A DNA stretch of 40,058 nt from Shigella phage VB_Ship_A7. The notes under the pieces are model-generated. The model was not told the DNA's origin. It did no database searches and saw only the letters and a program-made list of their open reading frames with translations. Shown one piece after another: positions 848 through 8,600 of this stretch. The stretch lies in sequence record MK685668; one strand, written 5' to 3'. Position 1 is the stretch's first letter. The number at the start of each line of letters is the position of its first letter. Position numbers and translations under genes: made by a program.

Positions 848-2608
848 TTACCACTCAATGAAGCAGCTAGAGTCTCCGTCGTCCTCGTAGTAGATGTCCA
901 CGCCACCAACATCGTAGCTATGGATAGCATCACCACCAACGGTCTGTTTCTCCATGTGGTGTTCAAGGAACTCAAGGGTCATCTCTTCTTCACCTACACG
1001 GCTGTCCACAAGCATCCCTTCACGCAGGAACTCGATACCCAATGCGATAGCATCAAGTCGGTCATCGTGTGCCACAGCGCCTCGCTCACGGGTCATACGG
1101 GTCATCTGATAGAACGCACTGTAGCGAACATCATGTTTCCCATCAAGGTCACGAGCAGTCTGGTAGTCCTCACGGATAACCTCATCACGAATGACCAGCT
1201 TGTGTGCACCCATCAACGGTTCGATAGTATCGCAGATTCGCATCTCCTTCATGCCTTTAGCACGGATTTCCTCTAAGGCACACTTGTGATGCTTCAGGAG
1301 AATCGGAGAGAAAATCTTACCGAACATACCGTCACCGAAGTTGGACTCGTGAACGACTGTCTGTACCTTCCACTGCTTGGCCTTCTTAGCGAGCTTCTCT
1401 AAGGTAGCATCATCGTAACCACCACGGAACCCACCGACTTCCATCAAGTAGATATAACCGTTAAGTGAGTAGAGGACTGCGTACCCGGTCTCATCCTTAC
1501 CACGACCACTTGGGTCAATGACCAGAATCTTAGACTGATACTCAGCGGTACGAGAAGAGCACGTATGGAACGCATGGATGTCATCACCCTTCAGACCAAC
1601 GTTAGGGAGTTCCTCATTGCGGTTCTGACGGTTCGGCAACCACTGGTAAGACAATGGGGCACGTTCAGGGTCCACAGCGCACACGATAGCGTCACGGAGC
1701 CGTAGCGGGTACTTCTCGGCATCACTAAGGTTCGGGTTAAGCATGAACTGAAGCGTGTAGCCAGCTTTACCGTATTCGAGTTCACGTTCACGGAGGTCAT
1801 CCATATCGAATCGAATAGGGTCAGTAGGTTGACCACGAAGTAACTCAAAGCCCTCATCGTATTCAGCCTTAAGCATCGGAGCCAAGCGGTCCCCATAGTA
1901 GAGAGCCTCAGCATCATTACGTGGATACTGTGCAGGCCAGATTACAGTGCTATACCCTTTGTTATCTTCAAGTTCCTTATAGAGCGTCATCTCGGTTTGA
2001 GGTGTCCCAAGGTAGATAACACGAGAGGTAGGCAGTGGCTTAAGTAACGCAGCAAACTCAGTTACCAACGTCCAGAGCTTCTCACGGGCAGAACTCGTAG
2101 AGCTATTACCGGGAACCTCAACGTCATCTGCGATGATGATGTCAGCACGGCTACCAGTCAACTGACCAGTGATACCTACAGACTTCACAGAGGGTGAGTG
2201 GTCTGGTTTAGCCAATCCAACGTCGAAGCTAATCACGGAGTCACGCTGTCCCGGTCGAGGTTTCAACTCAGCGAGGAATGGCAGCAGGTCAATGATGTTC
2301 TTGATGAAGATGGAGTTAGCATCAGCACGTTCCTTAGAGGCAGACACGATGAGCACCTTAAGTTGAGGGTCACGCCATAAGACCCACACAACGAACGCAC
2401 AGGTGATAAAGGACTTGCCGATACCACGGAACGCCTGAAGGATAAACTTCTTGTGGTCGCCGTTAGCGAGTGTACGTGCCATGTCAATCTGACACTTGGT
2501 TGGTTTAGGTAAGTTCAGAGCCTTCCATAAGACGAACAGGAAGGCCACGAAGTCACCCTTAAGTTGCGCAATGATTAACGCATTCTTAACTTCTTGGGAT
2601 TGTGACAT
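848..2608 (-). CDS. 19: Terminase large subunit (DNA packaging ATPase/nuclease)
   Basis: 586-aa ORF, same length as T7 gp19; ATG at 2608 with SD; last structural gene before the terminal repeat in T7 synteny. Confidence 0.95.
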
Positions 2609-3054
2609 TACTTAGCCTCCTTCTTAGTTTGCATTTCTTTGATTGTATCTTGGAGTGCACGAATCCACGCATCCCCTCTTTGAGTTACTCCGATAAGACG
2701 CTTACTAAACTCTTCGTCAAGTTCGGCTCGACCATCAACGAGGCATCCACCGTTATCTTGGAGTTCTCGTGTGGTGGCTGATAGTTTGACGCGCAAGCGC
2801 TTACCATCGTTACGCAAATCATTAATGACCCTATCAGTGCTGCCTTCCAGCGCCGCAAGGTCTTCTTGGTATTGTCGTGAGATTTCGTTGACAGCAGCCT
2901 GTTTATTCGCAGTCGCCTCAGTTTGCTTGATGTACTCATTGTGCACCTCCTGTTCCCATTTAGTGTTAGCTTTGTCATATCCGTGGTTATACGCAAGGGT
3001 AATCCCCAAGGCAAACGCAGCGATTATGGCGTAGCTCTTTAAATTCTTGAGCAT
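2608..3054 (-). CDS. 18.5: i-spanin (Rz-like, T7 gp18.5 homolog)
   Basis: 148 aa; N-terminal hydrophobic anchor ([14 protein letters not shown]) followed by a charged coiled-coil region; sits between small terminase and large terminase as in T7. Confidence 0.8.
2685..2939 (-). CDS. 18.7: o-spanin (Rz1-like lipoprotein, T7 gp18.7 position) nested in a different frame inside the i-spanin gene
   Basis: Embedded ORF in another frame; ATG at 2939 gives about 84 aa (T7 gp18.7 is 83 aa); contains a hydrophobic stretch ending in lipobox-like VSAC. Start codon choice is uncertain. Confidence 0.55.
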   Translation of the reverse strand: MSTSSKLRRLRINRLLSTKSHDNTKKTLRRWKAALIGSLMICVTMVSACASNYQPPHENSKITVDASLMVEPNLTKSLVSVLSE

Positions 3055-5611: not shown

Positions 5612-8600
5612 TTACTTCTTGTCAGACTTGAGGTGAACACCATTGGCCTCATAGAACTTGATGAGCATCTGTTGGGAGATTGGGTCGTTAGGAATCATCT
5701 CTCGGTGGGCGTTCATTAAGCCAGTCATCATCTCACGCTCGGTCACTTTGTTTGGAGCCGTAAGGACACCATAAGCATTTCGACCAGCAGCAAGGGTAGC
5801 ACCAGCGAACCCAAGAGCAGGAACCTGTTCACCAATAGCGCCCATAATGGAATCACCCATGTCACGAGAAGTTACCGCCTTGTTCCGTTCTTTCTTATCC
5901 TCTCCTTTAGGGAGAATCGTAGAGCGGACCATGAGACCTTGGTCGTAACCAGCAGCACCCATAGCGAAGTTTGCGATACTCAGAGGCGACCCAAGGTGTG
6001 AACTTCGGGAAGCCGCAGCGTAGGCAATCATCTTAGGGTCCAGAGCTTTCTTCAGGTAGTCCTTCTGTTGCTCTTTAGGAAGACCAGCAGCCTTCAAGTG
6101 GGCCTGTGCCACATAGTAGGAGCCAGCGATACCACCAGAGATTGCATAGGTCAGCGCCATATCCATAGCACGATGGTTCTTAAAGGCTTCGTGACCGGAG
6201 CGGATAAACTTAGAGTTCATCGACTTGATTACGAAAGACTTGAACTGAAGGACCAACTTAGCGGCAGCACCAAACGCATGGGAATCCTGAAGTGAAACCT
6301 TGTTAGGTCTCAGCATTGTCTCATCAGCAACCTTATCAGCCAGTCGCCACAGGTCCATAGCTCGCGGGTCATTAGCCAGCTTACGCTTGTCCTTGAAGGT
6401 GTACTTGCCGTCAGCACCTTGAGTGACGTTCTCACGGATGAGGTTCTGAATGCCTTCCCACTGTTCCTTTGAGATACTCGCAGATTTCAGCATGTCGCCT
6501 TTAATCCACTTGTTGGCACCCTTACCAGTAATGGCATGAGTTACCACATCTCCCATGACACCCTGACGGGCCATATCCAGAATGTAGTTGGAAGTACCGT
6601 TGAGGAACTTAGTGAACGGAGAGCGAGCAGCCAACTCTTGAGTGGTGTGCTTAACCGTACCAACAACCTTAGCGACAGCATCAGGTGTATCAGTAGACTC
6701 ACGGAGTCGCTGAATGATGTCTTGACGAGTCGGTCGGATTAACTGGTCGAACTCTTTACCAAACACCATAGAGTGGAGTTCTTTGAGTTCACTACCAGAG
6801 ACTGGCTTGTTACGGAACGCTAGGTCACGCAGAGCGGGAATGCCATGCAGCATCGCACGGGTGTTACCCTTCGACAATAGACCAGCGATTTCAGTTAGGT
6901 TCTGCAAGCCCATATATGCGTTCTTCGTAAAGAAGGACATATCGGATAGAGAGCGAACCATAGTGTCACCTACGGTATCCTGATTGCGTCGAGCACGACC
7001 AGTGACAATCTTAACGAAATCCTTAAGTGCTTCCACTTCACCTTTCATTGTGCCTTTACCTTCAGACTTCTTATCAAGAGCCATAATAGCGTCCTTGAGT
7101 TCAGCAGTAGTCTTGCCTGTGCCTCCCATGATAGCAATATCACCATCAACACGGCGGTCATATGCTGGCATCACATGCTTCATATCGAAGTCACGAAGGT
7201 CATTCACAGAGAACTGTTGACCATTCGGTAGAGTGATTGGCACGTCAGAATCAAACAGGTTACGGGCTTCAAGGAATGAGTTGTTCTCAATCCCAACGAG
7301 ACCCTCAATGTTATCGTCAATGACACTTGAAGAGTTGAACTCATCGGTCTTCGCAATACCATAAGCCTTGTCCATAGCGTACTTCTCAGCCATCTGACTA
7401 AGCATAGCCTCTTCGTCTACCTTTGGTTCCACCTTCTCGTCTGTGCCAAACTTCTGGCGCTCTGAAGGTTTAGCCGGGGTGGAGTCGTAGGCTTTACGGA
7501 ATGCTTGACCATCGGGGGTACGCACGCCACCAACTGATTCGTCTGTTCCACGGTACACGTAGTCAGGACTCTCAGTCTCAGCGATTCGGTACATCTCGGT
7601 AGCGATGCCTTTGCGGCGGTACTTCTCGGACACCTCAAGACTTGGATTATGCCACACGTCTCCCTCACGTTTAGCGAACTCTACGCTGCCAATGTGGTCT
7701 CCCTTTTTGGTGAACACATCCACCGCGAACTCAGCACCATCAGTTGTCTTAGCTGTGTAGTAGACAAAATCACCATCCACCTTGTAAGGAGTCTCACCAG
7801 AGTAGTCTCGCTTACCAGCGAAGTAATCACCTTGGAGTTCGCCATTAGAGACCTTAGTGATGCTAGTTGAGTTACCACCAGTCACCAGTGAGTCAGGCAT
7901 TACCGGAGCAGCCTCAGCACCTCTCAGGAAGTTCTCAGCTTCAGCTTGTGCACCTTTGGCAGTAGAGGCGGCTTCTTCAGCTTCGGCGGTGGCTTTGGTG
8001 ATTCTATCTTGGACCTTAGCAGCCTGTCCTTTCATGTGGTCGAGACGCTCTGTGTTAATACGGACGTGAGACTTCTGGGTCTCAATCATCTTCTTCCGGC
8101 TCTCAATCTTAACAGGAATGGTTTTGCTATTAGGTTTAGCAGCTAGTTTTTCTTCCAACTCCTTCAACTTAGCCTCATGCGAAGCCAGTCTGTCCTTGGA
8201 GTTCTGGAGTTTCCTTTCACGGTCCGCAACTCGCTTCTCAGCGTTGGTCAGAACGTCTTTTAGTTCCGCTACCTTATCACTTGCCCGTGTAGCTGCATCG
8301 TCCAGTTTCATCCGGTAACTGGCTGTGTCTACAGACTCTTGGCTTCTGAGGAAGTTCTCAGTGTCAGCCGCAAGTTTGGCATCAGCTTCAGCTTTGGAGA
8401 AAACGTCACTGTTAACCTGTTTAAGGTATTCATCAATACGGGCCTTGACTTCAGGACGCGCATGATATGATGCCATCAGGCTTGCAGCAACTGCTTCCTG
8501 TAAACCATCAGTGCCCCCAAGAGCCTGTGAGTACACCTGCTTGGCTTCCCGCGAGTACACATGAGGAACGTAAGTCCCTTTGTGACGACTGTTAGGGAAG

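Follow-up and report, generated by a model that had tools for sequence, protein, structure and literature searches.

Gene order and affiliation of the phage

The window, i.e., the whole stretch of 40,058 nucleotides analysed here (Shigella phage VB_Ship_A7), contains two nested genes with matches to spanin families between its small and large terminase genes, and the genes of this region all lie on the minus strand. The surrounding features are listed below.

5610-5588, minus strand: nearest upstream phage-RNA-polymerase promoter by consensus match (CAATACGACTCACTATTGGGAAG), ahead of gene 17
5540-3675, minus strand: tail fibre gene (ORF list)
3618-3412, minus strand: class II holin gene of the same late operon, homolog of T7 gene 17.5, 68 aa (PF10746, E 1.7e-29; phrog_920)
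3419-3153, minus strand: small terminase gene
3152-3055: intergenic region of 98 nt between the small terminase and i-spanin genes
2608-848, minus strand: large terminase gene

The order of the genes is 17, 17.5, 18, 18.5/18.7, and 19, and it was identical in T7 and in 20 or more relatives. As with genes 18.5/18.7 of T7, the pair belongs to the late operon and is located downstream of the holin gene. Phages of the Berlinvirus group, among them Yersinia phage WW1 and Escherichia phages D226, pO103, and ErnstBeyeler, were 93–98% identical to the region, and the window phage is a Berlinvirus-like relative of T7.

The late transcript carrying the spanin genes likely originates from the promoter at 5610-5588. 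The 23-nt promoter consensus, TAATACGACTCACTAWTGGGAGA, was derived from the phage's own sequence and was found in 11 copies against 0 expected, all of them on the minus strand (760-738, 5610-5588, 13917-13895, 18317-18295, 19297-19275, 22234-22212, 27226-27204, 30924-30902, 33318-33296, 33821-33799, and 39631-39609). It resembles the T7 promoter, but TTGGGAGA replaces the TAGGGAGA of T7; a search of the window with the T3-type promoter pattern returned no match.

Between gene 18 and the i-spanin gene, a 10-bp hairpin, AAGGCCGCTAC-ATCT-AGTGGTCTT, is followed by a T-rich tail (3141-3118, minus strand). The hairpin is kept in T7, ErnstBeyeler, and KpV766 and is present with changes in T3. The gene 18/18.5 intergenic region of T7 carries the RNase III site R18.5, and the T7 record annotates “E. 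coli promoter E[6]” in this corresponding region. At the other end of the i-spanin gene, the stop codon TAA shares one base with the large terminase ATG (TAATG at 2608). Many relatives (L005-L009, L011, L014, L038, and L019) have an insertion of 0.4–0.8 kb between genes 18.5 and 19, which is absent from the window; its annotation is homing endonuclease in fPS-85 and hypothetical ORF of 771 nt in vB_YpP_T3.

Two virion proteins encoded upstream were also noted. The gp16-like internal virion protein (10546-5612, minus strand) has 1644 aa and an N-terminal SLT transglycosylase domain, whereas T7 gp16 has about 1318 aa. When its residues ~939-992 (about 7571-7732) were scanned alone, they matched the GNAT family PF00583 with 23.8 bits (threshold 20.7) and contained the motif YRRKGIATEMY. 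A possible acetyltransferase-like insert in this protein, which belongs to the ejected internal core, may merit an analysis of its own. The tail fibre combines the N-terminal domain of T7 tail fibres with an intramolecular-chaperone domain of the Peptidase_S74 type at the C-terminus (PF13884, residues 515-583), a domain that is not known from T7 gp17.

The i-spanin gene

The outer gene of the nested pair has the following features.

3066-3060, minus strand: Shine-Dalgarno (SD) sequence GGGAGGG of the i-spanin gene, anti-SD duplex -10.7 kcal/mol
3054-2608, minus strand: i-spanin gene, homolog of T7 gene 18.5, 148 aa, Rz-like (ORF list and family matches)
3033-2986, minus strand: codons of the N-terminal transmembrane anchor, about residues 8-23 (hydropathy; AF2 helix)

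The encoded protein scored above the gathering threshold of the Rz family PF03245 Phage_lysis (30.4 bits, cut-off 25.4), matched the Rz-like spanins of phrog_1327 with an E-value of 3.4e-61, and was 53% identical to T7 gp18.5 (E 2e-51). The same GGGAGGG sequence is marked as the SD of the i-spanin gene of phage Berlin in SpaninDataBase. The protein begins with the short positive segment MLKNLKS (net charge +2), which is followed by the predicted transmembrane domain, as in two-component spanins of the embedded type (Summer 2007; Kongari 2018); the best 17-residue Kyte–Doolittle window covers residues 5-21 and reaches 1.74.

The domain after the anchor contains no Pro, and 52% of its residues are E, K, R, Q, A, or L. 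The AF2 model, built from the single sequence and of low confidence (pLDDT 59), shows a helix at residues 9-23 and two long helices at 25-100 and 105-147, with a break at N-G-G-C (residues 101-104) that includes the only Cys of the protein, Cys104. A sequence search of the PDB found no solved relative of the i-spanin, and NCBIfam gave no significant match to either spanin protein.

The embedded o-spanin gene and its predicted lipoprotein signal

Inside the i-spanin gene, a second gene is read in the +1 frame.

2939-2685, minus strand: embedded o-spanin gene, homolog of T7 gene 18.7, +1 frame, 84 aa from ATG 2939, stop codon at 2687-2685
2843-2805, minus strand: hydrophobic core of the o-spanin signal peptide, residues 33-45
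2804-2793, minus strand: o-spanin lipobox V-S-A-C, residues 46-49
2795-2688, minus strand: mature o-spanin, 36 aa, N-terminus C-A-S

ATG 2939 is situated 115 nt downstream of the i-spanin ATG, and the whole ORF 2939-2685 lies within 3054-2608, in a stretch of 112 codons that is free of stop codons in the +1 frame. The original prediction had described a 148-aa i-spanin with an N-terminal anchor and an out-of-frame ORF at 2685-2939 with the VSAC motif, and all of these coordinates and features proved correct in the sequence.

The embedded protein matched PF17531 O_Spanin_T7, which Pfam describes as the outer lipoprotein subunit of the spanin of T7-like virus, with 86.5 bits (E 1.2e-24, cut-off 25); the match extended from residue 25 to residue 83 and covered model positions 1-58 of 59. 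It also matched phrog_4306 over residues 1-84 (E 2.2e-37), and its residues 25-84 were 55% identical to T7 gp18.7 by BLASTP. Since both the Pfam model and the T7 BLASTP match cover only the part from residue 25 to 84, long-range conservation of the first 24 residues is poor.

By pattern, the o-spanin has a lipoprotein signal composed of a basic n-region, a 13-residue hydrophobic core, and the site VSA|C, and Cys49 is predicted to be the lipidated first residue of the mature protein. Residue +2 of the mature o-spanin is Ala and not Asp, i.e., the protein is without the inner-membrane retention signal and has the pattern for outer-membrane sorting. It contains no Cys besides the one predicted to be lipidated. 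The lipobox and its Cys are kept in all relatives as VSAC, VSGC, or ISGC, and the motif D-A-S-L-M-V-E-P-N is kept from Berlinvirus to Pseudomonas phages.

Homology, chance, and dual coding

An open +1 frame with a lipobox-like motif might in principle be a fortuitous product of an A/G-rich coiled-coil gene. As the null model for this reading, the synonymous codons of the i-spanin gene were reshuffled 20,000 times with the protein kept. In the reshuffled genes, the +1 frame was open for 60 ± 17 codons on average; a stretch of at least 112 open codons arose in 1.1–2.8% of the trials, and the lipoprotein-like pattern arose in 0.05–0.5%. We regard homology, far stronger than these statistics, as the decisive evidence that the predicted embedded o-spanin gene is genuine. 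In addition to the PF17531 score, a tblastn search with the embedded protein found homologs in 1162 phage records, and the gene covering the match was in nearly all cases annotated as Rz-like spanin; the lipobox, the Cys, and DASLMVEPN are kept across genera, and the T7 homolog has been experimentally linked to gp18.5.

The dual-coding analysis was based on 21 distinct close relatives (91–98% identical) in a BLAST- and MAFFT-anchored alignment. The annotated phage collection supplied these relatives because the scan of viral contigs gave only 15 loci. The embedded ORF was intact in 21/21 relatives, with equal length and stop codon. Third positions of i-spanin codons were variable at 15 of 84 sites inside the overlap versus 63 of 126 outside (Fisher p = 2.3e-6), and this scarcity of variable sites in the overlap supports dual coding. 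The nucleotide diversity (pi) values at codon positions 1/2/3 were as follows.

Gene 18: 0.026 / 0.008 / 0.173
Non-overlapped 5' part of the i-spanin gene: 0.021 / 0.034 / 0.129
Overlap, i-spanin third position: about 0.05

Gene 18 and the non-overlapped part of the i-spanin gene show the normal single-coding pattern, while synonymous variation is suppressed in the overlap. The homology and conservation data already refute a chance open frame, to which we assign a negligible probability. The original prediction of a nested pair with the Rz/Rz1 architecture is thus borne out by the family matches of both proteins, the synteny, the 53% and 55% identity to the T7 proteins, and the reduced synonymous variation.

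Start codon of the o-spanin gene

The in-frame candidates for the o-spanin start are TTG 3014, ATG 2978, ATG 2939, TTG 2858, and ATG 2822. Two further features bear on the choice among them.

2951-2945, minus strand: o-spanin SD sequence AGGAGGT, 5 nt before ATG 2939, inside the i-spanin codons Q-E-V
2858-2856, minus strand: alternative o-spanin start TTG; the precursor would have 57 aa, the first 21 of them a classical lipoprotein signal

The anti-SD duplex at ATG 2939 was calculated at -11.6 kcal/mol, which is comparable to the holin, terminase, and i-spanin sites (-10.7 to -12.2 kcal/mol); a value of -9 kcal/mol was reached by only 1.7% of 20-nt windows. The corresponding values were -1.6 kcal/mol at TTG 2858 and -3.3 kcal/mol at ATG 2978. 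In every relative examined, a GGAGG-type site and a start codon are located 38–53 codons ahead of the lipobox Cys, and this start is ATG in all loci but one (GTG in L017). The arrangement was seen in Berlinvirus, Teseptimavirus (T7), Teetrevirus (T3, SALSA, phiYe-F10), Helsettvirus, and Kayfunavirus, as well as in Przondovirus, Phutvirus, Aarhusvirus, Pifdecavirus, and phage Stamos.

The N-terminal extension that this start would add was analysed by codon position. Variable sites were commonest at the third positions of the o-spanin frame (8/27 versus 4/27 and 6/27), and i-spanin third positions were variable at 6/27 sites versus 63/126 outside the overlap (p = 0.01). This signal is suggestive of translation of the extension; the sites are few, and the excess in the o-spanin frame is not significant alone.

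Start codons for this gene family have been chosen differently. In SpaninDataBase (Kongari et al., 2018, PMC6139136), the near-identical genes of 285P, BA14, and Berlin are given three different starts, with products of 57, 84, and 67 aa, which agrees with the original prediction that the start is uncertain. For BA14, the signal sequence was remarked on as unusually long; for 285P, TTG was chosen with the comment that a decent SD was missing there, that a great SD was present upstream, and that the LipoP match was good; for Berlin, Met18 was chosen and the upstream start was considered possible (PMC6139136 supplement). The 67-aa form is impossible in the window phage because its codon 18 is ACG.

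Other candidates were rejected. ATG 2978, which is the annotated start in ErnstBeyeler (97 aa), has no SD at -3.3 kcal/mol, and an equivalent ATG is absent from T7, T3, and KpV766. ATG 2822 and ATG 2807 were rejected since they leave no basic n-region and make the hydrophobic core too short.

We consider ATG 2939 the probable start of the o-spanin gene. With this start, the signal peptide is 48 residues long, 32 of which form an n-region with a net charge of +10; its atypical length counts against the assignment. As had been predicted, the hydrophobic segment lies some 30 residues after the ATG; its core begins 32 residues after ATG 2939. A lipoprotein signal had also been expected on an in-frame start, and both ATG 2939 and TTG 2858 place a basic n-region, the core, and VSA|C at the N-terminus of the product. 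A good LipoP match is recorded for 285P, the signal core of which is identical to that of the window phage (PMC6139136 supplement).

Translation of the same spanin pair with the o-spanin beginning at TTG 2858, the upstream 27 codons being merely open and untranslated, would explain the textbook SPII character of the 21 residues before the Cys. It would also be in line with the choice made for 285P, with the presence of TTG at position -22 from the Cys in most relatives of the Berlinvirus, T7, and T3 groups, and with the failure of the first 24 residues of the long form to align with T7 by BLASTP. However, TTG 2858 is without a ribosome-binding site, SFP20 and Mysterion do not have it, fPS-85 has it at a shifted position, and its conservation requires no selection in the o-spanin frame since it is made of conserved bases of the i-spanin L-A codons. 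The retention of the strong upstream SD and start in every relative, with its G-rich synonymous sites, and the depressed third-position variation of the i-spanin frame in the extension also speak against this start, and we consider it unlikely. Use of both starts, in a dual-start arrangement like that of some phage holin genes, is a clearly weaker candidate and would be surprising: long and short precursors would then yield one mature lipoprotein, and the timing or amount of the o-spanin could be tuned in this way. Two plausible in-frame starts do exist, and many relatives have Met18, the start picked for Berlin, as a third candidate. Nevertheless, the internal starts are without SD sites; Met18 is replaced by Thr in the window phage and in several relatives, so that no internal start is universally kept.

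With ATG 2939 as the start, dual coding probably produced the long N-terminal extension as a side effect. An SD could not be placed just before the hydrophobic core without altering a highly conserved block of the i-spanin; therefore, the ribosome-binding site lies further upstream, in the WEQEV codons. It is improbable that the conserved, strongly basic extension of about 30 residues in o-spanins of the T7 family (+10 in the window phage) is instead a functional module. If it were, the extension might delay export, divert it, or determine the ratio of o-spanin to i-spanin, like the extended signal peptides of some autotransporters; in a variant of this reading, alternative starts would make both long and short precursors.

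Comparison with known spanin systems

One of the closest known counterparts is the gp18.5/gp18.7 pair of T7. In both phages, the pair is located between genes 18 and 19, the o-spanin gene is fully embedded in the +1 frame, and an SD with ATG is found 48 codons ahead of the lipobox Cys. The lengths of the i- and o-spanins are also similar (148/84 aa in the window phage versus 143/83 aa in T7). The T7 record annotates both 18.5 and 18.7 as Rz-like spanins, with a note on the fully contained frame and the interaction with gp18.5. The differences concern the initial 24 residues of the o-spanin precursor as well as the i-spanin anchor, both of which have diverged; the internal Met18 of the T7 o-spanin, which is Thr18 in the window phage; and the junction with gene 19, whose start overlaps the i-spanin stop codon in the window phage, whereas the two are 21 nt apart in T7.

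The spanins of 285P, BA14, and Yersinia phage Berlin are near-identical to the window pair, with the same signal core and lipobox and only single-residue differences; in tblastn, the 285P region showed 98.8% identity over 84 aa to the window o-spanin. SpaninDataBase classifies these three pairs as embedded, with the i-spanin assigned to the family “T7” and the o-spanin to the family “Kvp1” (PMC6139136).

The likeness to lambda Rz/Rz1 concerns the architecture, since Rz contains the lipoprotein gene Rz1 in its +1 frame, and the presumed mechanism, in which an inner-membrane anchor and an outer-membrane lipoprotein form a complex that spans the periplasm (PMC6139136); the window i-spanin matches the Rz Pfam family. 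However, the o-spanins of the two phages have no detectable sequence similarity. The signal peptide of lambda Rz1 is short and conventional, and the lambda complex uses intermolecular disulfides.

Proposed role in lysis

The locus of this T7-like phage of the Berlinvirus type almost certainly encodes its two-component spanin, and the genes are orthologs of T7 18.5/18.7. The ORFs, family membership, synteny, sequence signals, and dual-coding constraint were observed directly; by analogy with the family, the window spanins would also be expected to share lipidation, sorting, complex formation, and membrane fusion.

In the proposed mechanism, late transcription of the spanin genes would start from the promoter for the phage polymerase at 5610-5588. 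The i-spanin would be a type II inner-membrane protein with a cytoplasmic N-terminus and a periplasmic C-terminus, and its periplasmic domain of about 125 residues would be helical. Translation of the o-spanin in the +1 frame would most likely begin at ATG 2939, downstream of its SD, and give an 84-aa prolipoprotein; this precursor would be exported, lipidated on Cys49, and cleaved before it. The resulting 36-aa lipoprotein is proposed to be sorted to the outer membrane because its residue +2 is Ala.

The C-termini of the two spanins may then bind each other across the periplasm, by analogy with lambda Rz/Rz1 and T7 gp18.5/18.7. Gene 18.7 of T7, which lies in the 18.5 gene in its +1 frame, was described as an Rz1 analog of 83 residues, and the C-terminal 10 residues of gp18.7 bind the C-terminal 50 residues of gp18.5, for which two-hybrid data were cited (PMC3276506). 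After the destruction of the murein by holin and endolysin, the complex would fuse the outer with the inner membrane in the last step of lysis. The embedded architecture and the membrane-fusion model of spanins have been described (PMC6139136), and the C-terminal interaction of the subunits and a requirement for them in disrupting the outer membrane during lysis are known from lambda genetics (PMC6139136, PMC5295617).

Implications for annotation

The pair is already known as a type: these are ordinary lysis genes of the T7 family, near-identical pairs of which are curated in SpaninDataBase. The question of the start codon and the long n-region is family-wide and has already been flagged in that curated database. 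Beyond correct annotation, the importance of the finding is small. Among the 12 closest GenBank relatives fetched, 10 annotate the i-spanin only and miss the embedded o-spanin; ErnstBeyeler is the one Berlinvirus-group record of those fetched in which the o-spanin is annotated, with the 97-aa start that has no ribosome-binding site. Thus, embedded o-spanin genes are routinely missed, and recognition of this one completes the lysis cassette of the phage.
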